Assembly (NCBI GenBank): GCA_002299465.1
Contig: DBNX01000014.1
Span: 19,052 to 83,051, forward strand
DNA from: Patescibacteria group bacterium UBA661
Lineage (GTDB): Bacteria; Patescibacteriota; Minisyncoccia; Phycocordibacterales; UBA918
Reading direction: 5' to 3'
Length of the DNA stretch: 64,000 bases
Part shown: positions 2,525 to 41,857 of the stretch, one piece after another
Layout: the number at the start of each line of letters is the position of its first letter
How positions within the stretch are numbered: the stretch's first letter is position 1
Made by a program: the position numbers and the translations under genes
Notes under the pieces: generated by a model
Seen by the model: the letters and a program-made list of their open reading frames with translations, nothing else
What the model was told of the DNA's origin: nothing
Database searches by the model: none

Positions 2525-4219
2525 ATGACACAAGAAACCGCTTTGGAGATTTTGAAAACGGGAGCGAATGTTTTTCTCACAGGTGAACCGGGGGCTGGTA
2601 AGACTTATGTCATCAATCAGTACATAGCGTGGCTCGAAGCGGCGGGACTTAAAGTAGCAGTTACGGCTTCAACTGGTATTGCTGCTACGCACATTGGTGG
2701 ACTCACCATTCACTCGTGGAGTGGCATCGGTGCCCGAGACACACTTACGCATTATGACCTCGATCAAATAACAACCAAAGAAAAATTAGTGAAGCGTATC
2801 AAAAAGACGCAGGTGTTGGTGATTGATGAGGTGTCGATGCTTGACGGCAAGTTACTCGATATGGTGGATGTGGTTTGTCGCACCATCCGGGAGTCAAAAG
2901 AGGCGTTTGGTGGTATGCAGGTGGTTTGTGTCGGAGATTTTTTTCAATTACCGCCAGTGGCACGAGCGGGTGAAGTGTCACGCTATGCTTTTGAGTCACG
3001 CGCGTGGGAGAATTTATCCCCCCTAACTTGCTATCTAACCGAACAGCATCGCCAAGAAGATGAGTTGCTACTCAGTCTTTTGGGGGCAATCAGACGCGGC
3101 GAGATAGAGGAGGAGCACTACACTTTACTCGGAGAACAAGTCGCCATTGCTTATGCGGACATCGAACCGACTCGTCTGTACACGCACAATGCTGATGTGG
3201 ATGCCGTTAATTTGGCTAAATTGCGCGAATTATCAGGTGCGGTCCAAAACTTCACAATGACTGGGCATGGCAATCGTGTCTATCAAGAATCCTTGACGCG
3301 TAATTGTTTGTCGCCAGCCCAATTAGCGTTGAAAGTGGAAGCGATGGTGATGTGTACAAAAAATAATTTTGAAGCTGGTTATGTCAACGGTACGCTGGCT
3401 AGGGTGGTTGGTTTTGATAATTATGACAAGTACCCGATTATTGAAACAGCTGACAAAAGACGAATCACAGTGGAGCCGGTTACTTGGGAAGTGGTTGAGC
3501 ATGGTCGGGTTTTGGCGTCGATTGAACAGGTACCATTGCGTTTGGCTTGGGCAATTACAGTGCACAAAAGCCAAGGGATGTCACTAGACGCGGCTGAGGT
3601 AGATTTGTCGCGAGCGTTTGTTTATGGGCAGGGATACGTGGCGCTGTCGCGCGTGCGTGCACTGGCTGGTCTTAAAGTGCTGGGTGTTAATCCAAACGCG
3701 CTAATGGTCGATTCAAAAATCATCAACCAAGATGTTCGCTTTCGGAGTGATTCGGAGGCAGCGGAAGAAACTTTTACAGCTTTAGACCGACAGGAATTGC
3801 TTGGTATGCACGAACGTTTTGTGAAAGCCAGTGGTGGTAAACTCCCCACGGCTACCGCCACGGCTGAGGCAGTTTCCAGAGTTGGCAAACGTTTGGAGGG
3901 AGAGAGTACCTATGAACAAACTTTGCAAGCGTTAAAACAAGCTAAGTCATTGGGTGAACTCGCTCAAATGCGTAATTTGGCAGTGACAACAATACTTGGA
4001 CATCTCGAATATTTAGCAACGGCTGATAAATTAGAAAAAGACCTAATTTTGCCACTGTTGGCGGATTTTGCTGACAATAAAAAGGCTAAAGCGGCTGTTT
4101 ACGCCGCCATTGCTACTCATGGGGCAGAAAAATTAAAACCTCTTTATGAAGCAACCGATGGTAAATATGATTATCTGTTAATACGGCTTTTGCGGGTGGC
4201 TTACCAGTTGGGGATATAA
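2525..4219 (+). CDS. PIF1/RecD-like ATP-dependent DNA helicase
   Basis: Walker A GEPGAGKT at the N-terminus, DEVSM Walker B, and the order of AAA_30 then UvrD_C-like regions (QGMSLD...VALSRV) typical of PIF1-family helicases. Confidence 0.7.
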   Translation: MTQETALEILKTGANVFLTGEPGAGKTYVINQYIAWLEAAGLKVAVTASTGIAATHIGGLTIHSWSGIGARDTLTHYDLDQITTKEKLVKRIKKTQVLVIDEVSMLDGKLLDMVDVVCRTIRESKEAFGGMQVVCVGDFFQLPPVARAGEVSRYAFESRAWENLSPLTCYLTEQHRQEDELLLSLLGAIRRGEIEEEHYTLLGEQVAIAYADIEPTRLYTHNADVDAVNLAKLRELSGAVQNFTMTGHGNRVYQESLTRNCLSPAQLALKVEAMVMCTKNNFEAGYVNGTLARVVGFDNYDKYPIIETADKRRITVEPVTWEVVEHGRVLASIEQVPLRLAWAITVHKSQGMSLDAAEVDLSRAFVYGQGYVALSRVRALAGLKVLGVNPNALMVDSKIINQDVRFRSDSEAAEETFTALDRQELLGMHERFVKASGGKLPTATATAEAVSRVGKRLEGESTYEQTLQALKQAKSLGELAQMRNLAVTTILGHLEYLATADKLEKDLILPLLADFADNKKAKAAVYAAIATHGAEKLKPLYEATDGKYDYLLIRLLRVAYQLGI

Positions 4220-4330
4220 TTCTAGGTGGGTAATTTTTGGGTGTAGACTATTAACTAGGGGGCTAGAGATAGTCTTTTTCGTAGTTTAATATTTATTGAT
4301 TCAATCAAACTAAACACCATAATTTTATTT

Positions 4331-5293
4331 ATGAACTTAAAACATTCTTTACCAGCACTTTTAATTGTCGCTACAGCTGGAGTGGTGGCTCCAGCTCCTG
4401 TTAGTGCTCAGATCTCTATTCCAAATGAGATAGTTAATGAGGCATCTAGAGCTTTACAGGCGGAAGTAAATGCGCGCATGGCTACTGCTAGGGTCATTGA
4501 AGCAGCTGAGCAGTCTCTAGAAAGGTTAGAGAGAGCAATTTCACGCACTACTTTAACAGGTAGTGCTAAAGAAAGTGCTCTTGATCAACTTACGCAAGCC
4601 CGAGGCGTCTTGGATAGGGCCAGAGCACAACAAGACGACCGCGCTTGGCGCGAAGCACAACGCTCAGCAACGGAAGCGAGGCGGATAGCGGATCGAGCGA
4701 TTACCACCTTAAGTAGAGATGAACAGCGAGCAAATAGAGACAGCGCCGCCGCGGCTAGAGCTATTCAAACCGCTGAGCGAGCAATAGAAAGATTTCAAAC
4801 AACACTAAGAGGCACAACCCTCTCGGGTGATCATTTACAAAGAGCGCAAGGGTCTCTCGCTGAAGCCCAGGATCTTCTTGCTACCGCCAGAGCCCAGCAG
4901 ACTGATCGACTCTTCCGCGAAGCACAGCGTACAGCTAGTCAGGTTAGCCGGATTGCTGATAGGGCCAGAAGCACGCTAATCAGTCAAGAAAGAAGAGTAA
5001 ATAGCGCTGGTGCTGCCACTACCAGAGCCATCCAGACTGCTGAACAATCCCTAGAAAGATTAGAAAGAGCCATCTCAGGCAGCAGAGTAGTCGGCGATCA
5101 TCTGCAAAGAGCTCAGAGCTCTCTCGCTGAAGCCAGAGATCTTCTCGCTAGAGCCAGAAGCCAACAAAGTAACCAAGCTTTTGCTGAAGCGCAGCGTACC
5201 GCCAATCAGGTCAACAGTCTAGCGCAGCGAGCAATTACGCAACTTGAACAAGCTCAACAAAGACAAAATCAATCGCCACAAGGGACCTACTAA
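4331..5293 (+). CDS. secreted alpha-helical tandem-repeat protein (hypothetical)
   Basis: Signal peptide MNLKHSLPALLIVATAGVVAPAPVSAQ, then roughly 80-aa internal repeats (AIQTAE..LERAISG...GDHLQRAQ.SLAEA.DLLA.AR.QQ....FREAQRTA.QV). Sequence is Ala/Gln/Arg-rich. Confidence 0.6.
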   Translation: MNLKHSLPALLIVATAGVVAPAPVSAQISIPNEIVNEASRALQAEVNARMATARVIEAAEQSLERLERAISRTTLTGSAKESALDQLTQARGVLDRARAQQDDRAWREAQRSATEARRIADRAITTLSRDEQRANRDSAAAARAIQTAERAIERFQTTLRGTTLSGDHLQRAQGSLAEAQDLLATARAQQTDRLFREAQRTASQVSRIADRARSTLISQERRVNSAGAATTRAIQTAEQSLERLERAISGSRVVGDHLQRAQSSLAEARDLLARARSQQSNQAFAEAQRTANQVNSLAQRAITQLEQAQQRQNQSPQGTY

Positions 5294-5312
5294 TTTTTTA
5301 GAAGCTTATTCT

Positions 5313-5348
5313 AAAAACACCCCAGCTGAATTCAGATGGGTTGTTTTT
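5313..5348 (+). terminator. imperfect hairpin with embedded T-run downstream of the 4331..5293 gene
   Basis: aaaaacacccc agctgaattcagat gggttgtttttt; the stem has one mismatch. Confidence 0.4.
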
Positions 5349-5415
5349 TGATGATAATTTATTTCTTGTAAAACACTATGCTAGAATAATAGGGTGAAGC
5401 CCACGGTGGTTTCGT

Positions 5416-6288
5416 TTGAAGTTTGTTAAAAAAGAAAATAATTCATTTATGAATCTAAAATATTCAATTACAGCACTTTTATTGGTCGCCATGGTGGGCA
5501 TGGTTTCACCAGTGACAGTAAACGCCCAACAACCAAGTCCAACCAATTTAACTGAGCTAATGGAACGACTGCAAAGTCTCATTAAACAAGTAGAAGAATT
5601 ACAAAGGCAAATGAAAGCGTTGCGAGGGGAAGCGAGACCAGAAAAAGAAGCGAAGCCAGAAAAAAGAGATAGGGAACAAAAAGATCATCCACGAGCAAAA
5701 AATGCCAGCACTACGGCCGCTGCGGCGATTGCTGACGCGGAGAGGGCAATTACTGCCTTAGAGAGAGCCATCAGTGGAGCTACAACAACAGTCAGAGTTA
5801 ACACAATAAGAAACGCTGAAGACGCTTTAGATGACGCCCGAGAAGAATTAGCGGAAGCCCGAGAAGAATTTTCCGAGCAGGAGTTTCGTGACGCACACCA
5901 AACAGCGAGAGCGGCTCAGCGAGTGGCAGAAAGAGCCACTGCTAGACTGACTGGTAGCGAACGATTGGAGAGGAGAAATTTTGACAAAGATGATGATAAG
6001 GACGACAAAGACCGTTCAGCTTTAACAAGAAACGCCAGCACGACGGCTAGTCGAGCGATTGAATCTGCTCAAAAATTAATTGAAAGATTAGAAAGAGAAG
6101 TCACTAACACAACAGTGGCTGAGGAACGCTTAGAGGATGCGGAAGAATATCTTGATGATGCTATGGAAGAATTGGCTGAAGCCAGATTAGAGTTCTCAGA
6201 GCGAGATTTTCGTGACGCAGAAATGGAGGCCAGAGAAGCCATTCGTTATGCGGAAAGAGGACTGAAAATCCTAGAACAAGCTAGTTAA
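5416..6288 (+). CDS. secreted alpha-helical repeat protein, paralog of the 4331..5293 gene (hypothetical)
   Basis: Signal peptide MNLKYSITALLLVAMVGMVSPVTVNAQ is nearly identical to the neighbour's. Two copies of the motif AI..AE.AI..LERAISG.TTTV..N.....EDALDDA.EELAEAR.EFSE.EFRDA, plus a KDDDKDDKD acidic linker. Confidence 0.6.
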   Translation: MKFVKKENNSFMNLKYSITALLLVAMVGMVSPVTVNAQQPSPTNLTELMERLQSLIKQVEELQRQMKALRGEARPEKEAKPEKRDREQKDHPRAKNASTTAAAAIADAERAITALERAISGATTTVRVNTIRNAEDALDDAREELAEAREEFSEQEFRDAHQTARAAQRVAERATARLTGSERLERRNFDKDDDKDDKDRSALTRNASTTASRAIESAQKLIERLEREVTNTTVAEERLEDAEEYLDDAMEELAEARLEFSERDFRDAEMEAREAIRYAERGLKILEQAS

Positions 6289-6304
6289 AAAACTTATCGA
6301 AACC

Positions 6305-6335
6305 AAAAACCACCCAAACAATTTGGGTGGTTTTT
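6305..6335 (+). terminator. rho-independent terminator
   Basis: Perfect hairpin aaaaaccaccc-aaacaattt-gggtggttttt followed by a T-run. Confidence 0.7.
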
Positions 6336-6453
6336 GGTTTGTAGATCGACCCCCAACAGGAGTAAAACTCTTTGGAGTAAGTCAGACGCATGTTTTTACA
6401 CAAGTCGCCACATAATATTGTTTAGTTTATAATTACAAAATTGGACTAATTGT

Positions 6454-6864
6454 ATGAACGACTACCAACAGCACAGACAAACAGCCGTCGCCTGCATAGA
6501 AAGTGAAGTTGAAAAATGGGCGACCTTGCTTGGCGTTACTTACACTAAGGTGGTCATAAAAAATCATAAGCGTCGGTGGGGGAGTTGTTCGTCTTTGGGT
6601 AATCTTAATTTTAATTACCGATTGTTGTACTTACCGGAATGTTTGCGTGATTACATCATTGTTCATGAATTGTGTCACCGCAAACAATTTAACCACAGCC
6701 ACGCTTTTTGGTTTGAGATCAGTCTGGTATTGCCAAACTATCGGGAGCGCGTGTTTGCTTTAAGACAATTAGAGCGAGCTACTAAGATGTCACCAGAATT
6801 ACTACGGCAACACCAAATAACACATAATTGTCCGCACTGCCAGCAACAAATCCAAGCTGATTAG
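6454..6864 (+). CDS. YgjP-like (DUF45) M48-family zinc metallohydrolase
   Basis: HExxH motif in context (IIVHELCHRKQFNHSHAFW), characteristic of the YgjP/UTP pyrophosphatase family. C-terminal CPHC. Confidence 0.6.
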   Translation: MNDYQQHRQTAVACIESEVEKWATLLGVTYTKVVIKNHKRRWGSCSSLGNLNFNYRLLYLPECLRDYIIVHELCHRKQFNHSHAFWFEISLVLPNYRERVFALRQLERATKMSPELLRQHQITHNCPHCQQQIQAD

Positions 6865-6916
6865 GGGTGAAAGTAGAGAGAATTTAATTTGTTATACTGT
6901 ATACTGTAGTCTCTCT

Positions 6917-8155
6917 ATGAAATATTTTTCTGCTGGCTTAAGCAAAATTGGAGCTTTATTTTTGGCGATGTTTTTGGTTGTGCCAATGACAGCGGTGTCC
7001 GAGACGGTTTCTTACGCTGGAGTAGCCGACCCACTGCCGGTGATTGTTTTTGGGCGAGATGATTGTGGTTTTTGTATTGAACAATTTGAGTTTTTGGCGG
7101 CAAATCAAATTGATTACGTCTATTACAATATTGTCGAAGATCCGACGGCTCGGGAGTTATTCAACCAGCTAACCGAAAAACACCAGCTCTCCAGAGTTAC
7201 TCCGATTACAGTGGTGGGCGAACAAGTGTTTGTTGGTTTTAACGGCGGAGAGACTACTGGTAAAAGGATTTTGACGGCTCGTCTTAGCGATGAAAATAAT
7301 ATCAGAACGATTGAAGACCACCTTGCTCTAGCGACACCAGTATCGGTACAGGCGGAGGATGCTTGTACTGATGTGGCTTGTGTGGATGTCGCCAGTAGCA
7401 ACTTTGTCTACGAACTACCTTTTTTGGGAGTGGTCGATTTGCGTTCGTTTTCTTTATTTTCGCTGTCGCTTATCTTGGGGGTGATTGATGGCTTCAATCC
7501 TTGTGCGATGTGGGTGTTGGTGACTTTCTTGGTCTTACTTTCACAAGCGGGTAGTAAGAAAAAGATGATTGTCTTAGCCGGGGTTTTTATCCTAGCTCAA
7601 GGCATAATGTACAACTTAATTCTCAACGTCTGGTACAAGACGTGGGATTTTATAGCCCTTGATGAGATTGTGACACCGCTGGTGGGCTTTCTCGCGCTTG
7701 GTGGCGGTGCGTTTTTCCTCTGGCGTTGGCATCGAAACAAAAAAACTGAGTTGGTCTGTGATATTACAAACATCGAGACTCAGTCAAAGACCATCAACAA
7801 ATTCAAACAAGTTGTTAATCAACCAATTACCATCGCGTCTTTGTTGGCTATTCTCCTCATTGCTTTTTCAGTCAACGTAATTGAATTTGCTTGTTCCATC
7901 GGTATTCCGCAGGCCTACACAAAAATCCTTGAGATGAACGCCTTGGCTTTTCTGGAGCGACAAGGGTACATTCTGGTCTTTACTCTCGGCTATATGTTTG
8001 ATGATTTTGTGGTATTTGCGTTGGCGATTTGGGGTTACTCGCGTCTGCAGGCACACGGCGGAAAATACGCCCAACTGTCTCTGCTGATCGGTGGTGTTTT
8101 GATGTTATTCCTCGGCTTGATACTTTTGTTAGACCCTAATATTTTTAAGTTTTAG
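6917..8155 (+). CDS. fusion of a glutaredoxin/thioredoxin-like domain with a CcdA/DsbD-like thiol:disulfide transmembrane protein
   Basis: Signal/TM at the N-terminus, then a Grx-like segment (VIVFGRDDCGFCIEQFEFL...ITVVGEQVF), then 6 predicted TM helices with conserved Cys in TM1 (GFNPCAMW) and a later TM (EFACSIGIP), as in the CcdA/DsbD core. Confidence 0.5.
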   Translation: MKYFSAGLSKIGALFLAMFLVVPMTAVSETVSYAGVADPLPVIVFGRDDCGFCIEQFEFLAANQIDYVYYNIVEDPTARELFNQLTEKHQLSRVTPITVVGEQVFVGFNGGETTGKRILTARLSDENNIRTIEDHLALATPVSVQAEDACTDVACVDVASSNFVYELPFLGVVDLRSFSLFSLSLILGVIDGFNPCAMWVLVTFLVLLSQAGSKKKMIVLAGVFILAQGIMYNLILNVWYKTWDFIALDEIVTPLVGFLALGGGAFFLWRWHRNKKTELVCDITNIETQSKTINKFKQVVNQPITIASLLAILLIAFSVNVIEFACSIGIPQAYTKILEMNALAFLERQGYILVFTLGYMFDDFVVFALAIWGYSRLQAHGGKYAQLSLLIGGVLMLFLGLILLLDPNIFKF

Positions 8156-25735: not shown

Positions 25736-25738
25736 AAT

Positions 25739-25763
25739 AAACCACCGGCTGAGGCGGTGGTTT
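25739..25763. terminator. bidirectional hairpin terminator between convergent genes
   Basis: aaaccaccg-gctgagg-cggtggttt with flanking T/A runs. Confidence 0.55.
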
Positions 25764-25784
25764 GGATTTTGATTGCGGACTACT

Positions 25785-26138
25785 TCAAGTAGTTGTAGTT
25801 TTTTGCTTGAGGGCGGCGATTTGTTTTTTGATTTTTGCCACCGGTTTGGTGCGAGCCAGACTCTGGTTTCTGTTGAGGTAAAGGAAATATGGGCGTATTT
25901 TTCCGCCGCCTTCCTTTACATAAACACGCACATCTTGCTTGTGGTCAGAACGCTTGAGCTCAGCCACAAACCGTGACGGTACTTCGTAGACGCCATCAAC
26001 CAGATTGTCAGCAACGGTGATATTGAGGTGTTCTAGCGTAGCCGCTGAATCACCCTGATCATTAAACCATTCGGCGATAGCCTCGTTAGCGCTGGGACTA
26101 AGAGGCTTCACATAGAAAGAGTATTGGCGTGAAGACAT
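25785..26138 (-). CDS. hypothetical protein
   Basis: 117-aa ORF with a good SD (aggaagg) upstream of the ATG and a Lys-rich C-terminal tail. No family recognised. Confidence 0.4.
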   Translation of the reverse strand: MSSRQYSFYVKPLSPSANEAIAEWFNDQGDSAATLEHLNITVADNLVDGVYEVPSRFVAELKRSDHKQDVRVYVKEGGGKIRPYFLYLNRNQSLARTKPVAKIKKQIAALKQKTTTT

Positions 26139-26289
26139 GGTGGCACCTTCCTAGTTTGAAATGAAACAAAAAAGAACAAAAGAGCTAGAGAGAAAGAATA
26201 TCGAAATAACGGCAAATGTAAAGAGTTGTGTCTGTATAAAGTCAGACTATTAAAATGATTTAAGGTAACCTCTAATTTTTTATTTTTTA

Positions 26290-26310
26290 ATGTCGCACAA
26301 TATTTTGCAT
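26290..26310. repeat. left copy of an inverted palindromic element (atgtcgcacaatattttgcat)
   Basis: Reverse-complementary to 26708..26735 apart from a short indel. Confidence 0.5.
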
Positions 26311-26311
26311 A

Positions 26312-26321
26312 GGGGGGGGGG
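26312..26321. repeat. G10 homopolymer tract
   Basis: Ten consecutive G in a roughly 45% GC genome, about 175 nt upstream of the 25785..26138 start, followed by a G-rich stretch (gtagagttggtgggtgataggggcaagg). Confidence 0.9.
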
Positions 26322-26707
26322 TAGAGTTGGTGGGTGATAGGGGCAAGGTCGGTGCTGGACGTTTTAGTGTGCTTTTGCATTAGGTTAATTTTTGACACTG
26401 AACCAGCTAACGTTCCGGTTTGTACCCAAGACAACAATTTTTGTAAGTGCTCAGATAAAACCAAAATAGCCACAAAAATTTAGTTTGTCAGATTTTTTAA
26501 AACAAAAAGTAACCGTAGCAACTCTGCTGGTAGGAATAATTTTAAATGAGGTTTACTAGCTGTGAGCACGCCCGAGTTACTTAACAGGAGCGTAGCTTAC
26601 AAGAGCTTGTAAGGCTCAGGATACTAGATTAGGCGTACCGATCCCAACCCCTATAACTAACCCAGCCCAACTCCGGTAGTGTAGTGCCGACTTTAGATGT
26701 ATAGCTT

Positions 26708-26735
26708 ATGTCGCAAAAGATATATTGTGCGACAT
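26708..26735. repeat. right copy of the inverted element; itself a 28-nt hairpin (atgtcgca-aaagatatattg-tgcgacat)
   Basis: Self-complementary ends; its reverse complement matches 26290..26310. Confidence 0.5.
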
Positions 26736-26861
26736 CTATCTATTACTATGACTAAGCATTACGACATTATTTACCTAAAGCTAAAGCCTCCCCTTTCCCA
26801 CTCGTATCGCTCCTAAGCCGCGGCTGGCTCTTATAAAATTTTTGCGACGTTGCCATTCATA

Positions 26862-28266: not shown

Positions 28267-28533
28267 TTAGTTATTCATCGCTAAGGCGTTGCTCCAGCAA
28301 GGGGCGGAAGCATTCCACGGACGCGTCCCTTGTGTTTCGTAAAGGTAGCGTGCGTAGGCCATATTGTGATAAATGTCGTAGAGATTGAGGTTCATAGAAC
28401 GTGCTGTCTCCTCGTGGTAACGTTTATTGATCTGCATTACGCCAGTGTCGTCGTTGTCAACTCTGCCCCTTAGGACAGAACCGTCAGCGAGAGTGTGTCG
28501 AAAAGTCGATTCACAACGGGCAATGTGTATCAT
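28267..28533 (-). CDS. small lysozyme-like / lytic transglycosylase (GH23-like) domain protein; the N-terminus may extend to about 28683 without a canonical start codon
   Basis: ARCESTF...GVMQIN resembles the SLT catalytic Glu/Ser and GLMQ motif. The in-frame upstream 50 codons encode a signal-peptide-like hydrophobic segment (LILSNVILAVLAATSFSTVVPAS) but contain no ATG/GTG/TTG. Confidence 0.45.
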   Translation of the reverse strand: MIHIARCESTFRHTLADGSVLRGRVDNDDTGVMQINKRYHEETARSMNLNLYDIYHNMAYARYLYETQGTRPWNASAPCWSNALAMNN

Positions 28534-28957
28534 TATCGGTATATCACGGAAATAAGAACGAACTATTCGCTCGGTTGAAATAGTAGCAGCGGGCAGGTTT
28601 TCTTGTGCTACTTCTGCCGAACTTATATAACCGAACTCAGTACTTGCAGGGACAACGGTCGAAAACGACGTCGCAGCCAGAACAGCAAGTATTACATTGG
28701 ATAAAATAAGCCATTGGTCTTATCTTATAAATACCGGCTTTTAGGTCGGTAACCGCAAAATCATAGCATAAATAGCGGATTTTTTATATTATAGCATATA
28801 TTAAGCTATAAGTCAATAGCTTGTGGTAATGTCTAAATAAATTTGGGCTGTTTTCAGCTATATTATAATCTAAGTCAGTTTTTATTTCGATTTATAAGTT
28901 TAAACCTCCCAACCCTCCGATCTTCGGCTTTAACACCAGTCAGTATATCTAAAAAAG

Positions 28958-28990
28958 CCGCCCCGAAAGTCGAGACGACTTTCGGGGCGG
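28958..28990 (-). terminator. rho-independent terminator of the mTERF-like gene
   Basis: 14-bp stem ccgccccgaaagtc / gactttcggggcgg with loop gagac, followed on the minus strand by TTTTTT. Confidence 0.65.
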
Positions 28991-29006
28991 TGGGCGGGGT
29001 TACCTC

Positions 29007-29999
29007 TCAGAAATCTTTTTTTCTGTATATGCGGTAAACAGCTCTCGGTGTCGGCTTTTCCTCTAAAGACCGAAACTTTCTTGCAATTGGGATGTAGTGC
29101 TTGGGAGACATACCAATGAATGTGAACGAGTACGCAATGAACTCATTAGCCTCTACCTCTAGCTGTCGACAGAGCTTTAATTTCCTGTCGATATTCTCAA
29201 ACGAGTAGCCGAGGATGTTCGGCGCCGTAGTGATCAGCTTCTGTGGGTCTTTGAACCCACGCTCACGCAACCCAGCGATTTTCCCGTCGATGTTCTCAAG
29301 CGAGTAGTTGAGGATAAGAGGCATCGAGACAATCATCTTCTGCGGGTCTTTGAACCCACGCTCTCGCAACCCAGCGATTTTCCCATCAATGTTCTCAAAC
29401 GAGTAGCCGAGGATGGCAGGCGACGTAATGATCAGCTTCTGCAGGTCTTTGAACCCACGCTCTCGCAACCCAGCGATTTTCCCGTCGATGTTCTCAAACG
29501 AGTAGCCGAGAATGGTAGGCGACGTAATGATCAGCTTCTGCGGGTCTTTGAAGCCACGCTCACGCAACCCGGCGATTTTCCCGTCGATGTTCTCAAACGA
29601 GTAGCCGAGAATGGTAGGCGACGTAATGATCAGCTTCTGCGGGTCTTTGAACCCACGCTCTCGCAACCCGGCGATTTTCCCATCAATGTTCTCAAACGAG
29701 TAGCCAAGGATGGTAGGCGACGTAATGATCAGCTTCTGCGGGTCTTCGAACCCACGCTCTCGCAACCCGGCGATTTTCCCGTCAATGTTCTCAAACGAGA
29801 GACCAAGGATGGCAGGCATCGAGACAATCATCTTCTGCAGGTCTTCGAAGCCGCGTTGTCTTAATCCTTCAATCTTTTTGCCATAATCTTCAACTGGCCA
29901 AAGGTGGTTTTTAAAGATCGAGCTGCCCTCAATACGTTCCAACCCGAAGATTTCCGCATAGAAATTTTGACGGGCGTTTCTTTCTTCTTGAGAAAGCAT
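29007..29999 (-). CDS. tandem-repeat protein with seven 33-aa mTERF-like motifs (hypothetical)
   Basis: Seven consecutive copies of G-LRERGFKDPQKLIITSPTILGYSFENIDGKIA. The pattern L..GF.d.q.i..ii..P.iLg.S.EN...K....L...GF matches the mTERF repeat consensus. Unique N- and C-terminal regions flank the repeats. Confidence 0.55.
   Translation of the reverse strand: MLSQEERNARQNFYAEIFGLERIEGSSIFKNHLWPVEDYGKKIEGLRQRGFEDLQKMIVSMPAILGLSFENIDGKIAGLRERGFEDPQKLIITSPTILGYSFENIDGKIAGLRERGFKDPQKLIITSPTILGYSFENIDGKIAGLRERGFKDPQKLIITSPTILGYSFENIDGKIAGLRERGFKDLQKLIITSPAILGYSFENIDGKIAGLRERGFKDPQKMIVSMPLILNYSLENIDGKIAGLRERGFKDPQKLITTAPNILGYSFENIDRKLKLCRQLEVEANEFIAYSFTFIGMSPKHYIPIARKFRSLEEKPTPRAVYRIYRKKDF
29178..29870. 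repeat. seven tandem 99-bp direct repeats, over 90% identical at the nucleotide level (coding)
   Basis: Unit gggtctttgaacccacgctctcgcaacccagcgattttcccgtcgatgttctcaaacgagtagccgag... recurs with only a few substitutions. Confidence 0.85.
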
Positions 30000-30163
30000 G
30001 GTACTCTCCTGTGTAGGGTGGAAGACAGTTTTGCTAATTTAGACTATATCATAAAATATGTTTTTGTCCAATTTTTTGCTGGCTGTTATCAGTACTCAAT
30101 TACACTACTACAACTATAATTTTGCTGAATTATGTGTTTTAATTTAAGGGTTTCTTAAACGGT

Positions 30164-31087
30164 ATGACATTATTATTATTTTTTGGAGCGTTGGTGGCTC
30201 CCTTCCTCTACGCGATTACCAACCACGTAGATAAAATTCTCCTTCAAAATTATTTCAAGGAAGGCGGGGTTGGTACATTGATTATTTTCTCCTCCCTCCT
30301 CTCTTTTATTGCTATACCAGTGGTGCTTTTTGTTGATCCAACGGTACTACAAACTGATTGGTTTAATATAGCTATACTGACAGTTGTCGGTGCGATGAAT
30401 CTCATCTTGTTGTGGTGTTACTTGCAGGCGCTCAACGCCGATGAGCCCACGGTCGTTATTATCTTTTACCAGTTGGTGCCTGTACTCGGCCTGATTCTTG
30501 GCTATTTGGTGTTAGGAGAAATGATTACTCTGATGCAGGGGGTGGCCATGGCACTCATCATTGTTGGTGCTTGTATTATGACGTTAGCAAGTGACGAGGA
30601 TGGGAAGCTTACTATCCGACTTCGGACCCTGGGTTATATGGTGATTGCATCTTTGTGTTGGGCGGGTGAGTCTACTCTCTTTAAAAAAGTGGCCCTAGAA
30701 GAGAACGTTTGGCGTTCCTTTTTCTGGGAAAGTCTTTCGATGGTTGTTATTGGTATTATTTTGTTTTTATTTGTGCGTCGCTATCGCCAATCATTCCTAA
30801 AGGCACTAAAAGTAAACAGTAAACCAATTTTAGGTTTAAACGTTTTCAATGAGTCAGTCTACATAACTGGTAACATGGCAGCTTCTTTTATGGTGGTCCT
30901 CATTCCGGTGGCTCTTAACTTGCTGATGAATTCCTTCCAGCCCATATTTGTGTTCGTTATTGGTCTGGTATTGGCGTGGTTTATACCGAATTATGCGACT
31001 GAGACAGCGCGTAGTCGCTGGAAGCAGAAACTGTTAGCCATTGTCTTCACCGGCTTGGGGGCGTATTTCATTGGTGACTGGTGGTAG
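30164..31087 (+). CDS. DMT (EamA-like) family transporter
   Basis: 307 aa, about 10 predicted TM helices in a duplicated 5+5 arrangement. Confidence 0.55.
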   Translation: MTLLLFFGALVAPFLYAITNHVDKILLQNYFKEGGVGTLIIFSSLLSFIAIPVVLFVDPTVLQTDWFNIAILTVVGAMNLILLWCYLQALNADEPTVVIIFYQLVPVLGLILGYLVLGEMITLMQGVAMALIIVGACIMTLASDEDGKLTIRLRTLGYMVIASLCWAGESTLFKKVALEENVWRSFFWESLSMVVIGIILFLFVRRYRQSFLKALKVNSKPILGLNVFNESVYITGNMAASFMVVLIPVALNLLMNSFQPIFVFVIGLVLAWFIPNYATETARSRWKQKLLAIVFTGLGAYFIGDWW

Positions 31088-31187
31088 GTAAGAAGTGACC
31101 ACATTTTGTGTCTTTCTAACACCTTATCTAAATTTGATTTTTAGCTTCTTTAAAAAAACTTACTGCCGAGAGCTTTTATTTAAGTAA

Positions 31188-32030
31188 TCATTGCTGTTGT
31201 TTGGCATAAACCAGTGCTCCATAAAGACCAGCGTCATCTTTTAGGGTGGCGGTGGTAATGAAAGGACAAGCCACAAAACCATCGAGAGCTTCTACGGTGT
31301 ATTTTCTGGTGGCTTCAATTGGTATTTTTGGATCCCCCACCATCATAGAACCACCGAGAATAATTACCTCCGGCGACCAGTACAGAATGGTGTTGCGCAA
31401 TCCTTGTGCTAAATACTCCGCTAACTCGTCCCATAAAGCGTCGCTTTGGGGGATTTCGTAGGGCTTAACTCCTAGACGAGATTCCACCGCTGTACCGGAC
31501 ACCAAGTTTTCTAAGGTTGGAGTCACGTCTTCGCCTAAAATGGTCCTGTCTATATCAAGCAGTTGGTGACCGGGTTCAAAGCCAACTGTTGCAATATCTA
31601 GTTTGCCTTGCTCGATCTTTACCCCACCCACACCGGTGCTGATGGTGTGGTAAGCAACAATATCAAGCCCCTTCCCTGCCCCAAAAACCGCTTCCCCTAA
31701 ACCCGCTAAGGCCGTGTCATTTTCTAAGTAAACTGGTACACCAAACTGAGCAGTTAAATCTTTAGTCAGCGGTTTACCAGCCCAACTACCAAGCACGGCA
31801 TCATTAGCGATGCCGGTTTTATTCTCCATTAGCAAACCCCGAATACCACCAGCTATGGCTTTTATTTTTTTACCGGCTGCTAATTCAGCGATTCCTTCCG
31901 ACATTTTTTTAAGACCAGCTTGATAATTAGTTGGGGTGTTAAAAGAAATCTTTTGTGTGATGGTTTTACCATCATCGCTAACCGCTACTCTAATTTTCGT
32001 GCCACCAACATCAAAAACAACGTAGATCAT
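31188..32030 (-). CDS. ROK family sugar kinase (glucokinase-like)
   Basis: VFDVGGTKIRVAV N-terminal ATPase motif; ROK-like core; 280 aa. Confidence 0.7.
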   Translation of the reverse strand: MIYVVFDVGGTKIRVAVSDDGKTITQKISFNTPTNYQAGLKKMSEGIAELAAGKKIKAIAGGIRGLLMENKTGIANDAVLGSWAGKPLTKDLTAQFGVPVYLENDTALAGLGEAVFGAGKGLDIVAYHTISTGVGGVKIEQGKLDIATVGFEPGHQLLDIDRTILGEDVTPTLENLVSGTAVESRLGVKPYEIPQSDALWDELAEYLAQGLRNTILYWSPEVIILGGSMMVGDPKIPIEATRKYTVEALDGFVACPFITTATLKDDAGLYGALVYAKQQQ

Positions 32031-38942: not shown

Positions 38943-40403
38943 ATGTTTAGTAATCTTTTTCGATCCGAGAAAACCGCCTTCGCTACCTTGCCTATCCAGC
39001 TCTACAATACCAGCGGTGGCCAGAAAGAAATTTTTCAAGCTCAAAATGACGGGGTGGTTTTAATGTACAGTTGTGGCCCAACGGTTTACGATTACGCCCA
39101 CATTGGAAACCTTAGATCGTACGTTTTTTCAGATATCTTAAAACGCACCCTGCAATTTCATGGCTACGCTGTTTCCCACACTATAAATTTTACTGACTTC
39201 GGGCACCTCACAGATGATGGTGATGCCGGTGAAGACAAAATGATGAAAGGTCTCAAGCGTGAGGGGTTGCCAGTGACACTGGAGGCAATGCGCGACCTCT
39301 CGGATCGTTACATTAGGGCCTTTACAGAAGATTTTGCCGCTCTGCGCATTATTCCCCCCACGACTTGGGCGCGGGCGAGTGAATATATTCCAGAACAAAT
39401 TAAACTCATTGCGACACTACAAGAGGCTGGCTATACTTATGAAACTAGTGACGGAGTTTATTTTGACATTAGCAAGTTTCCGGCTTACGGCAAACTCGGA
39501 AACATTAACTTGAGTGAATTAAAAAGCGGAGCACGGGTAGAAATTAACACTGAAAAAAGACAAGCGGCTGACTTTGCTGTTTGGAAAAAAGGCACTCTCG
39601 GTTGGGACAGTCGTTGGGGTAAAGGTTTTCCGGGTTGGCACATTGAATGCTCTGCGATGGCGATGGCTACGCTTAGTGAAACTATCGATATTCATACTGG
39701 TGGCATAGATCACATACCAGTTCATCACAACGCTGAAATTGCCCAATGTGAGTGTGCTACTGGTAAGACTTTTGCTCGGTACTGGCTTCATAATGCCTTT
39801 CTTAGTATCAACAACACCAAAGTCAGCAAATCACTTGGCAACACTTTCACTCTACGTCAGCTGTTTGAGCAAGGTTTCACTGGAGAAGATTATCGGTACT
39901 GGTTACTGACTGCACATTACCGCTCGCCGGTAAATTTTTCTTGGGAAGCTTTAGCGGCAGCGAAGCAAGCTCTCTTTCGTTTGCGTCGCCTTGTCTATGA
40001 GGAATATCAACAAGTAGACGGTGTTCCAGAAACCAACTACGTTGCGCAATTACGCAGTCATCTCGCTAACGATTTAGACACACCGGCGGTGATTGCCTTG
40101 CTTTGGCAAATTACCAAAGATACCAATCTAGACAATCCGACCAAGTGCGCCACCATTAAGGTTTTTGACAGTATTCTCGATGTTGGGCTAAGTGCCACCA
40201 AAGCAGAGGGGCAAGAGGCGCTGGGAACGGTAACTGCCGATGAAATTCCGTCCGCCATTCAAACTTTGCTAGACAAACGAGAGGCGGCCCGAATTGCCAA
40301 CAATTGGTTCGAAGCTGACACTCTGCGCGAAGCTATTAAAATCAAGGGTTACAATCTAGAAGACACTCCGCACGGACCAAAACTAAGTAAAATCTTGGAT
40401 TAG
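38943..40403 (+). CDS. cysS: cysteine--tRNA ligase
   Basis: HIGN(LRSY) HIGH motif, KMSKS (KVSKSLGN), and the Zn-binding Cys/His pattern of CysRS. Confidence 0.9.
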   Translation: MFSNLFRSEKTAFATLPIQLYNTSGGQKEIFQAQNDGVVLMYSCGPTVYDYAHIGNLRSYVFSDILKRTLQFHGYAVSHTINFTDFGHLTDDGDAGEDKMMKGLKREGLPVTLEAMRDLSDRYIRAFTEDFAALRIIPPTTWARASEYIPEQIKLIATLQEAGYTYETSDGVYFDISKFPAYGKLGNINLSELKSGARVEINTEKRQAADFAVWKKGTLGWDSRWGKGFPGWHIECSAMAMATLSETIDIHTGGIDHIPVHHNAEIAQCECATGKTFARYWLHNAFLSINNTKVSKSLGNTFTLRQLFEQGFTGEDYRYWLLTAHYRSPVNFSWEALAAAKQALFRLRRLVYEEYQQVDGVPETNYVAQLRSHLANDLDTPAVIALLWQITKDTNLDNPTKCATIKVFDSILDVGLSATKAEGQEALGTVTADEIPSAIQTLLDKREAARIANNWFEADTLREAIKIKGYNLEDTPHGPKLSKILD

Positions 40404-40474
40404 AAGTTATTCACAAAATCCACACTCTGGCGGAAAAAACGTCAAGTGTCGGTACGTGCTACAATAGCTCCACT

Positions 40475-41857
40475 ATGGCAGAATCAGCTACCGTCAACCG
40501 TTCTCTACGCACACCACCGCGTAATATTGACGCGGAAAGAGCTCTGCTCGGGGCGATTATCTTAAAACCTGACGTGATGCACGATATCGCCACCAATGTC
40601 TACCCGGAAAGTTTTTTTGTTGAAAAACACCGGCTCATTTTTGAAGCACTTTTGCAGATATTTTCTAAGGGTGATCCGATTGACGTAGTGACTCTGGTCT
40701 CAAAACTCCGGGGCAACAACAATCTAGATCGAGTGGGCGGTGCCACTCTCATCACCGAACTAATTGAGACAGTACCAGCGGCTGGCAATGCTCACTACTA
40801 TGCTGAATTGGTCCAAGGCAAATTCGCTTTGCGTAGTCTTATTTACGCCGCTGAGGAAGTGGCTGAAATTGGCTATTCTGACCCAGAGAGTGTTGATGAG
40901 GCACTTGACCAAGCCGAAAAAAAGATTTTTCACGCCACCCAATCTCCGAGCGCCCAAAAATTTAAGACTATTGGCGCTTCGTTAACCGAGGCGTGGGGGC
41001 GTTTTGAGTACCTTAGTGCCAACCAACACGAAACGCGTGGCGTACAATCGGGTTTTACCGCTATCGATAACTTGTTGGCTGGTTTTCAAAAATCTGACTT
41101 AGTGATTTTGGCGGCTCGTCCCTCGATGGGTAAAACCACTTTTGCACTTGATGTGGCACGCAACGCTGCTCTCAAATATGGTGCTTCGGTCGGTATTTTT
41201 TCGCTAGAAATGAGTGACCAACAACTGGTAGATAGAATGCTGGCGGCGGAAGCGGGAGTGGACTCGTGGAAGCTGCGCACTGGCAGATTAAGTAATGACC
41301 ACGAATTTGCGGCCGTGCAACAAGCGATGGCGCGTCTTTCTGAAGCAAAAATACATATCGATGACCAAGCCGGCAACAACATTCTCAAAATGCGTTCGGC
41401 CGCGCGTCGCCTTAAAAATGAGCATGGTCTGGATTTGCTCATCGTCGATTACTTACAACTAATGTCCCCCACTGCCACCAAAGCCAGTGATTCGATGGTA
41501 CAACAAGTGACAGAAATCTCTCGTTCCTTAAAAATTATGGCTCGTGACTTGGAGGTGCCAGTGATTGCTCTTTCCCAGCTTTCTCGTGCGGTCGAACAAC
41601 GTGGCGGCAAACCTCGTCTCTCTGACTTACGCGATTCTGGCTCTATAGAACAAGACGCCGACGTGGTTATGTTTATCCACCGTGAAGATAAAATAAACAA
41701 AGAGTCAGAAAGACCAAACATTGCTGAGATATTGGTTGAAAAACACCGCAACGGACCGGTGGGGGTGGCGGAATTGTACTTTGACAGTAAACACGTTCGT
41801 TTTCTTAATCTTGACACTCACCACGCAGCTGAACCCGGAGCTAGTGATGATTTTTAG
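40475..41857 (+). CDS. dnaB: replicative DNA helicase DnaB
   Basis: DnaB N-domain, Walker A (ARPSMGKT), and the RecA-like core ending in the SRxxE/DRD motifs (IALSQLSRAVEQR; DLRDSGSIEQDAD). Confidence 0.9.
   Translation: MAESATVNRSLRTPPRNIDAERALLGAIILKPDVMHDIATNVYPESFFVEKHRLIFEALLQIFSKGDPIDVVTLVSKLRGNNNLDRVGGATLITELIETVPAAGNAHYYAELVQGKFALRSLIYAAEEVAEIGYSDPESVDEALDQAEKKIFHATQSPSAQKFKTIGASLTEAWGRFEYLSANQHETRGVQSGFTAIDNLLAGFQKSDLVILAARPSMGKTTFALDVARNAALKYGASVGIFSLEMSDQQLVDRMLAAEAGVDSWKLRTGRLSNDHEFAAVQQAMARLSEAKIHIDDQAGNNILKMRSAARRLKNEHGLDLLIVDYLQLMSPTATKASDSMVQQVTEISRSLKIMARDLEVPVIALSQLSRAVEQRGGKPRLSDLRDSGSIEQDADVVMFIHREDKINKESERPNIAEILVEKHRNGPVGVAELYFDSKHVRFLNLDTHHAAEPGASDDF

Follow-up and report, generated by a model that had tools for sequence, protein, structure and literature searches.

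An mTERF-fold protein with seven near-identical 33-residue units in a CPR bacterial genome

mTERF has been seen as a eukaryotic invention for the control of organelle genomes, and a 2026 survey explicitly reported it to be absent from bacteria (PMC12977773). The locus described here lies in a 64,000-nt stretch of bacterial DNA (the window) and carries a gene for a 330-aa protein with seven tandem, mTERF-like repeats. It raises the questions of whether a true mTERF protein can be encoded by a bacterium, what such a protein would bind, and from where the gene came. In the literature, no paper connecting mTERF with CPR bacteria was found.

The reading frame and its seven 33-aa repeats, already noticed in a preliminary description made from the letters alone, were confirmed by the ORF call, by TRF, and by the protein register (Table 1). 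There is one mTERF gene copy within the window. The terminator hairpin begins 17 nt past the mTERF stop codon, on the strand of the gene; the strong terminator first placed at 28958-28990 is real and corresponds to an inverted repeat (I3) with 100% complementary arms. The promoter-like site and the AGGAG site are consensus matches only. With a promoter-like site, a ribosome-binding site, and a strong terminator to itself, the gene is predicted to be monocistronic. Within the array, the opposite strand has a 58-aa shadow ORF (29710-29886, +), which is a by-product of the periodic sequence and is unsupported as a gene.

Table 1. Features of the mTERF locus, given as positions in the 64,000-nt window
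Feature	Position	Strand	Basis
Window-specific segment of ~2.4 kb: terminator, mTERF gene, divergent intergenic region, EamA gene	28818..31197		Synteny, blastn
EamA gene, adjacent to mTERF gene	30164-31087	+	EamA Pfam match
mTERF-family protein CDS, complete, 330 aa, stop included	29007..29999	-	ATG start
N-cap, aa 1-44, helical, acidic (pI 5.3)	29868..29999	-	Alignment A1, secondary structure, charge
Seven in-register 33-aa/99-bp mTERF units, aa 45-275	29175..29867	-	TRF, unit table, identity matrices, DSSP, GC3
Unit 1	29769-29867	-	
Unit 2	29670-29768	-	
Unit 3	29571-29669	-	
Unit 4	29472-29570	-	
Unit 5	29373-29471	-	
Unit 6	29274-29372	-	
Unit 7	29175-29273	-	
C-cap, 55 aa, aa 276-330 plus stop, basic (pI 9.7)	29007..29174	-	Alignment A1, helices
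Intrinsic terminator: perfect 15-bp stem (11 G-C), 3-nt loop, CTTTTTT tail	28948..28990	-	Terminator scan
Promoter-like TGGACA-16 nt-TATAGT with extended TG	30070-30043	-	Promoter scan, 10/12 consensus matches
AGGAG ribosome-binding site, 6-nt spacer to ATG	30006-30010	-	Upstream sequence

In the N-cap, R10, Y14, F18, and W34 are invariant across subfamily A (alignment A1), which is defined by the C-cap motif ...FIGMSxKHYVPIxRxxR...PTPxxVxxIY. Each unit has three helices, at unit positions 10-16, 18-22, and 25-33 plus 1-4 of the next unit, with lengths of 7, 5, and 13 residues in all units (DSSP, AF2 model). The helices of the C-cap span residues 284-289, 291-296, 299-312, and 318-327, so that a degenerate eighth three-helix unit (aa 276-308) is followed by a final helix. 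No signal peptide was found in the 330-aa protein. The whole protein is basic (pI 9.35, net charge +9; family median pI 9.57), and its charge is split between basic repeats and C-cap and the acidic N-cap.

The mTERF identity of the repeats, first proposed from their residue pattern, is supported by both profile and fold. Against Pfam PF02536, the whole protein scored 98.8 bits (gathering cutoff, 23.1 bits; E 3.7e-28) over three matched stretches, and a precomputed PF02536 match was present in 41 of 59 homologs. DSSP of the AF2 model gave a unit of ~30 aa with three helices and a conserved proline before a short helix; across the family, unit position 18 is proline in 151 of 164 units. The modelled superhelical solenoid is superimposable on solved mTERF structures, with 11-21% identity to the eukaryotic ones. 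The gene is not of the eukaryotic, organelle-targeted kind, since the contig is bacterial and the N terminus is a conserved acidic helical cap rather than a transit peptide. Thus, the profile match and the model together show a true mTERF-fold alpha-solenoid, predicted to consist of the N-cap, seven near-identical units, and a C-cap with a degenerate eighth unit.

Other repeat families fitted less well. The comparison with TPR, PPR, Sel1, and HEAT repeats suggested at the outset was run, and neither a profile match nor a two-helix hairpin unit was found. TAL effectors and TALE-likes (AvrBs3, PthXo1, BurrH/BAT) are built from two-helix units of 33-35 aa in which the loop between the helices carries a repeat-variable di-residue. 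Judged by this unit and by the requirement of a significant sequence match, membership in this family was rejected. The matches to Glyoxalase_4, SSXRD, and similar families on the 330-aa protein, as well as the extra precomputed Pfam matches on two homologs (P0018 and P0025), held zero independent stretches and were discarded as repeat-summing artefacts. A JGI label of 'HicA-like mRNA interferase' on another homolog (P0200) was without Pfam support; this protein has ~14 diverged mTERF-like units. Membership in an anti-phage defence family (best PADLOC match, E 0.03) or a phage family was also rejected, the PHROG matches being sums of 20-aa partial repeat matches without a stretch passing alone, and no relatives of the 330-aa protein were found on viral contigs. 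The best PDB profile match was 8VD6 'CAP repeat' (E 8.8e-7, profile A1), via the motif ...ILGLS.DEI.... As 8VD6 is a 33-aa repeat protein designed de novo with ProteinGenerator (PMC12339374), the match was rejected as a biological clue; it seems that ProteinGenerator, a generative model, arrived at a unit resembling that of mTERF.

The protein belongs to a larger family. An indexed search gave the 59 homologs as clusters at 90% identity; the named ones are from Lloyd-, Kaiser-, Parcu-, and Peregrinibacteria, and all are annotated 'hypothetical protein'. In an exhaustive HMMER scan of 1.84 billion representatives (50%-identity clusters), 903 matched at E<=1e-3, of which 301 reached E<=1e-10 and 66 reached E<=1e-30. 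When 185,579 species-representative genomes were searched in a pattern-limited scan, 16 genome loci were obtained, all from MAGs and mostly CPR-named, 2 of which bear automated 'uncultured Gammaproteobacteria' labels. The distant HMMER matches included proteins from a Bdellovibrionia MAG and from Omnitrophota, along with one or more eukaryotic gene models. The close named members of the family are CPR bacteria, and some unnamed clusters may be eukaryotic. The shared repeat occurs in three architectures with different C-terminal caps. This C-cap diversity and the spread over several CPR classes argue for an established bacterial family and not for one recent import. So far, bacterial mTERFs are public only as 'hypothetical proteins' and are absent from the mTERF literature.

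Diverged mTERF-like units that are not homogenised were also seen outside CPR, in P0080 (Bdellovibrionia MAG, 761 aa) and P0108 (Omnitrophota, 609 aa). P0114 and P0200 (608-611 aa) are likewise mTERF-like with diverged, non-homogenised units. The N terminus of P0080 is a signal-peptide-like hydrophobic segment, which suggests that this protein may be exported.

Within a protein, the differences between units are concentrated in a patch of five positions. In 54 within-protein unit pairs with at least 80% identity, taken from 22 proteins and phylogenetically non-independent, 63% of the 175 differences fell at unit positions 16, 17, 19, 22, and 23, compared with an expected 15% (5/33 positions), and 38 of 40 proteins had this bias. 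The patch toggles within small alphabets, namely, L/S/F at 17, A/T/S/P at 19, G/S/N at 22, and Y/L/F at 23, and the frequent L-Y switch often involves two nucleotide changes (for example, CTC -> TAC in the window). Positions 3, 8, 9, 11, 15, 24, and 30 vary between proteins and are uniform within a protein, and R5, K12, and K31 are near-invariant. Units 2-4 of the window gene share the patch signature TSTGY.

At the codon level, nonsynonymous and synonymous differences stood at 280:43 for the five patch codons versus 491:559 elsewhere (21 genes, non-independent pairs), with a raw ratio of 199:7 at positions 17, 19, and 23. The amino-acid difference rate at the patch was 0.53 per codon, compared with a synonymous rate of ~0.2 per codon, and the crude per-site dN/dS was ~1 at the patch and ~0.25 elsewhere. 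Positive selection at the patch was rejected as a conclusion, since a per-site dN/dS of ~1 is no less compatible with relaxed constraint than with diversifying selection. Judged from these counts, the patch around the conserved Pro18 escapes both constraint and homogenisation.

To place the patch on a known binding surface, its positions were mapped onto human MTERF1 by a Pro-anchored sequence alignment, in which MTERF1 is only ~20% identical. The landmarks were PDB chains of MTERF1 point mutants in the profile alignment, such as the change of NP[F]ILIQS to NP[A]ILIQS in the F243A chain. The MTERF1 sequence used was accepted because it agreed with all nine landmark residues and with the two printed fragments. 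F243 is Pro+1 and thus unit position 19, and F322, in YPDVI[F], is unit position 22. By the Pro anchor, R162 is assigned to position 16 and both R202 and R350 to position 19; in the profile alignment, R251 lies opposite Asn27, which is invariant in the family. For Y288, the motif is without proline and the mapping (19-20) is approximate. Direct base contacts of MTERF1 are made by R162, R202, R251, R350, and R387 (PMC4705650); R169 was dropped as a contact because it is not on that list. The flipped bases stack on R162, F243, and Y288, and the R162A/F243A/Y288A/F322A mutant is deficient in DNA binding (bioRxiv 10.64898/2026.07.16.738964). The mapped contacts occupy four distinct positions (16, 19, 22, and 27), of which three belong to the variable set, with a hypergeometric chance of ~0.007. 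From this overlap, we infer that the patch may face the ligand.

Overall, the best explanation, and in our judgment a reasonably probable one, is a true CPR mTERF solenoid with homogenised units and inferred nucleic-acid binding by its inner face. As in other mTERFs, the cytoplasmic basic solenoid would bind nucleic acid along this face, with R5, K12, and K31 holding the backbone and the patch on and around the short second helix facing the bases, and the length of the footprint would be set by the number of units. As units 2-4 present identical patches, the target would be periodic or loosely read. Nucleic-acid binding as such is quite likely. Structured RNA such as rRNA is a possible ligand, and double-stranded DNA, with the protein as a roadblock or terminator, is only slightly less probable. 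Solved mTERF folds include DNA-bound MTERF1, rRNA-bound mitoribosomal proteins, and MTERF4. In our judgment, the patch, with its small and aromatic residues, resembles RNA-repeat readers more than it does the arginines of MTERF1. A function other than nucleic-acid binding or protein scaffolding appears improbable.

The solenoid might instead serve as a scaffold for a protein or peptide, with the patch tuning a protein interface or merely tolerating change. Alpha-solenoids commonly bind proteins, MTERF4 is a partner of NSUN4 according to PDB entry titles, the patch residues are hydrophobic or small and not Arg, Asn, or Gln, and a dN/dS of ~1 at the patch would agree with such a role. However, all characterised mTERF-fold matches are nucleic-acid-associated (MTERF1 with DNA and mitoribosomal mTERFs with rRNA), the protein is basic like 85% of its family, the patch coincides with the base-contact positions of MTERF1, and no conserved partner gene lies nearby, so that a protein-binding role is unlikely. 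Conserved neighbours were also considered as a clue to function and rejected, as seven homolog contexts had different core genes each and no operon partner, with merely loose proximity to DnaB, CysRS, or ThyA blocks.

If nucleic acid is bound, CPR mTERFs could go further and act as modular readers, in which the order of the unit signatures spells the target as in the TALE, PUF, and PPR codes. The homogenised 33-aa scaffold would then present a specificity patch (for example, S-L...A..G-L versus S-S...A..G-Y), and each genome would have an accessory reader of its own, possibly for episymbiont-host or phage conflicts. We regard this extension as improbable, and the same holds for the reading joined to it, that bacteria and not eukaryotes were the source of the mTERF fold.

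The array itself is by far the strongest tandem repeat in the window: TRF reported it at 29181-29849 with a period of 99, 6.8 copies, 89% matches, 0% indels, and a score of 979, and the second-best repeat scored 67. The initial figure of over 90% identity between the 99-bp units holds for units 2-5, which are mutually 92-97% identical at the nucleotide level, but not for units 1, 6, and 7, which are 66-86% identical to the other units. The homologs have 2 to at least 10 units in a strict 33-aa register; in subfamily A, most have 3 or 4, and the 330-aa protein, with 7, has the most. In the alignment of two homologs (P0002 and P0009), the only gap is exactly 33 residues long, which indicates that length changes by whole units. 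The longest array (L009, 2512-3639, from a Candidatus Shapirobacteria MAG) has at least 10 units and ends at the contig end; its signatures read SLSGY SLASL SQAGL SLSGY SLSGY SQASF SLSGY SLSGY SQAGL FQSGY, an order that looks like a higher-order three-unit period.

Units resemble each other more within proteins than between proteins (mean identity, 0.68 versus 0.55). Where units have the same amino acid, the same codon was used in 0.73-0.93 of positions among window units 2-7 and in 0.66-0.98 in four other loci, compared with 0.39 between proteins. This codon sharing within arrays points to homogenisation at the DNA level, beyond protein-level selection, and together with the whole-unit indel it bears out the early suggestion of recent expansion, contraction, or gene conversion. 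The route may have been gene conversion, unequal recombination, or recent duplication. As for strain-level polymorphism in copy number, a metagenome scan returned distant relatives only (45-59% identity), and the nearest collinear genomes are without the gene.

Homogenisation may also be reflected in base composition. GC3 was 0.71 in the array, 0.46-0.465 in the caps, and 0.415 ± 0.038 in the 57 other window genes. As a whole, the mTERF gene had a GC3 of 0.63 (z = 5.8) and the second lowest synonymous-codon score of 58 genes, and its caps had a normal codon score. In 3 of 4 other loci (L002, L005, and L022, with L023 as the exception), GC3 was likewise higher in the array than in the caps. Thus, it is the array excess that makes the whole gene compositionally odd, and this oddness is not to be read as foreign origin. 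The excess could be a footprint of GC-biased gene conversion or the amplification of one unit's codon choice.

A rival reading takes the seven-unit count for an error of assembly, with a true array that has more or fewer units or is polymorphic. In its favour, 99-bp units at 92-97% identity are beyond the resolution of short reads, only 3 of 99 nt separate units 3 and 4, and the mTERF match lies at a contig end in 7 of the 16 genome loci (L009, L013, L015, L018, L019, L020, and L021), so that arrays do break assemblies. Nevertheless, three public contigs, the longest of 107,856 bp (JGI sample 3300031922), encode an identical 330-aa protein, which speaks against a single assembly error in the number of units. 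In addition, all unit pairs differ at one or more nt, providing anchors for the assembler, and both caps and the reading frame are intact. An incorrect count is therefore very unlikely here. For the family at large, MAG data probably understate both the number of units and the size of the family, as near-identical 99-bp units break short-read assemblies.

The host and the surroundings of the gene are bacterial. The window genes are bacterial throughout, including MurG, MurI, an M23 peptidase, aminoacyl-tRNA synthetases, L9, L27, DnaB, and RecR, and its DnaB matches those of named relatives (Candidatus Paceibacteria, Kaiserbacteria, Pacebacteria, and 'Patescibacteria group') at 77-81%. The host, uncultured and very small, is identified by these core genes and DnaB relatives as a Parcubacteria-type CPR (Patescibacteria) bacterium. 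Four relatives (L031-L034), whose PGI is 65-69% identical, are otherwise collinear with the window over a block of DnaB, CysRS, S41 peptidase, L9, PPIase, L27, BrkB, RNase T, LOG, PGI, and ROK genes, and three of the four become collinear again from the 88-aa/EVE/MurI genes onward, L034 being without the EVE gene. Between these blocks, the mTERF and EamA genes are both missing from all four relatives, and the mTERF-unit HMM gave no match in the four loci. Blastn similarity ends at ~28818 and restarts at ~31197-31255. In place of the mTERF gene, three relatives have a CheW-like gene of 152-162 aa and the fourth has nothing extra. The preliminary description's accessory-like island is thus borne out by synteny as a 2.4-kb segment absent from four collinear relatives. 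The opposite view, based on the flat GC around the gene and its housekeeping neighbours, was overturned by the same comparison. No att-like repeats or integrase were found flanking the segment, and the inverted repeats there were weak and at chance level.

In other genomes, mTERF genes are flanked by DnaB and CysRS (L029) or by dCTP deaminase and ThyA (L030), or lie beside NusB-NUDIX and RNase III (L005). The differing core contexts, together with the absence from relatives, indicate that the family is patchy and accessory within CPR genomes. The gene in L029 (P0019 genome), of a different subfamily, lies in the DnaB-CysRS gap (3468-7449), and the window has this pair 72 bp apart (38943-41857); different slots of one conserved block have thus received mTERF genes in different lineages.

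Two further observations concern the neighbourhood. Immediately beyond the mTERF terminator, an 88-aa ORF (28267-28533, -) has sub-cutoff SLT/lysozyme-like matches (E 0.004-0.006), and its ortholog in L034 (10365-10802) has 145 aa with a hydrophobic N-terminal segment. As DNA homology reaches ~280 bp upstream of the ATG of the window ORF, this copy may have lost its 5' end or been given the wrong start. Just past MurI, there is a second variable spot (window, 25736-26861; L031, 12693-13715; L032, 12645-13616; L033, 10266-12207). It contains a phage-type integrase in two relatives, Abi_C and GmrSD-like defence genes in the third, and in the window one 121-aa ORF (26108-26473) without a Pfam match.

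With this setting, recent eukaryote-to-bacterium transfer or eukaryotic contamination of the assembly is highly improbable: the family is overwhelmingly eukaryotic in the literature, the gene is odd in GC3 and codon score, and it is missing from the collinear relatives, but it sits on a 108-kb bacterial contig with an RBS, a sigma-70-like promoter, and an intrinsic terminator, its GC3 anomaly is confined to the array (caps, 0.465) and recurs in most of the other loci, dozens of CPR homologs exist in three architectures and several CPR classes, and its identity to solved eukaryotic mTERFs is low. The two origins considered at the outset were horizontal acquisition and an unrecognised bacterial branch. 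A bacterial family stands, given its CPR spread and three architectures, and recent import from eukaryotes is disfavoured. With the CPR family, the origin of mTERF becomes testable: the family either has a bacterial ancestry or was transferred between episymbiotic bacteria and eukaryotes.

The bacterial version is unusually regular, with exact 33-aa units, homogenisation at the DNA level, and length changes by whole units. If the patch sets specificity, the protein would provide a compact repeat scaffold of bacterial origin with which nucleic-acid recognition could be programmed. If it does not, the family is still a clear natural example of how a helical repeat protein evolves in concert, and it offers structural work an mTERF that is close to ideal.

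The closest known systems differ from the 330-aa protein in several respects. It is 16-21% identical to human MTERF3 (MTERFD1; PDB 3M66), whose units are mutually diverged and irregular in length, whereas its own units are exactly 33 aa and near-identical; MTERF3 is nuclear-encoded and mitochondrial, and the 330-aa protein is bacterial, without a targeting peptide, and has different caps. Tetrahymena mS93, Chlamydomonas mL114, Polytomella mL121, and MTERF4 are 11-20% identical to it. All of these come from eukaryotic organelles and form part of ribosomes, either stably or transiently, and a ribosomal link for the bacterial gene was not found. To human MTERF1 (PDB 3MVA, 3N6S, 5CRK, and others), identity is ~20%. 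MTERF1 reads DNA largely via arginines, whereas the bacterial units have S/L/F, A/S/T/P, G/S, and Y/L/F at the equivalent positions, and R251 of MTERF1 is matched by an invariant Asn in the bacterial units.
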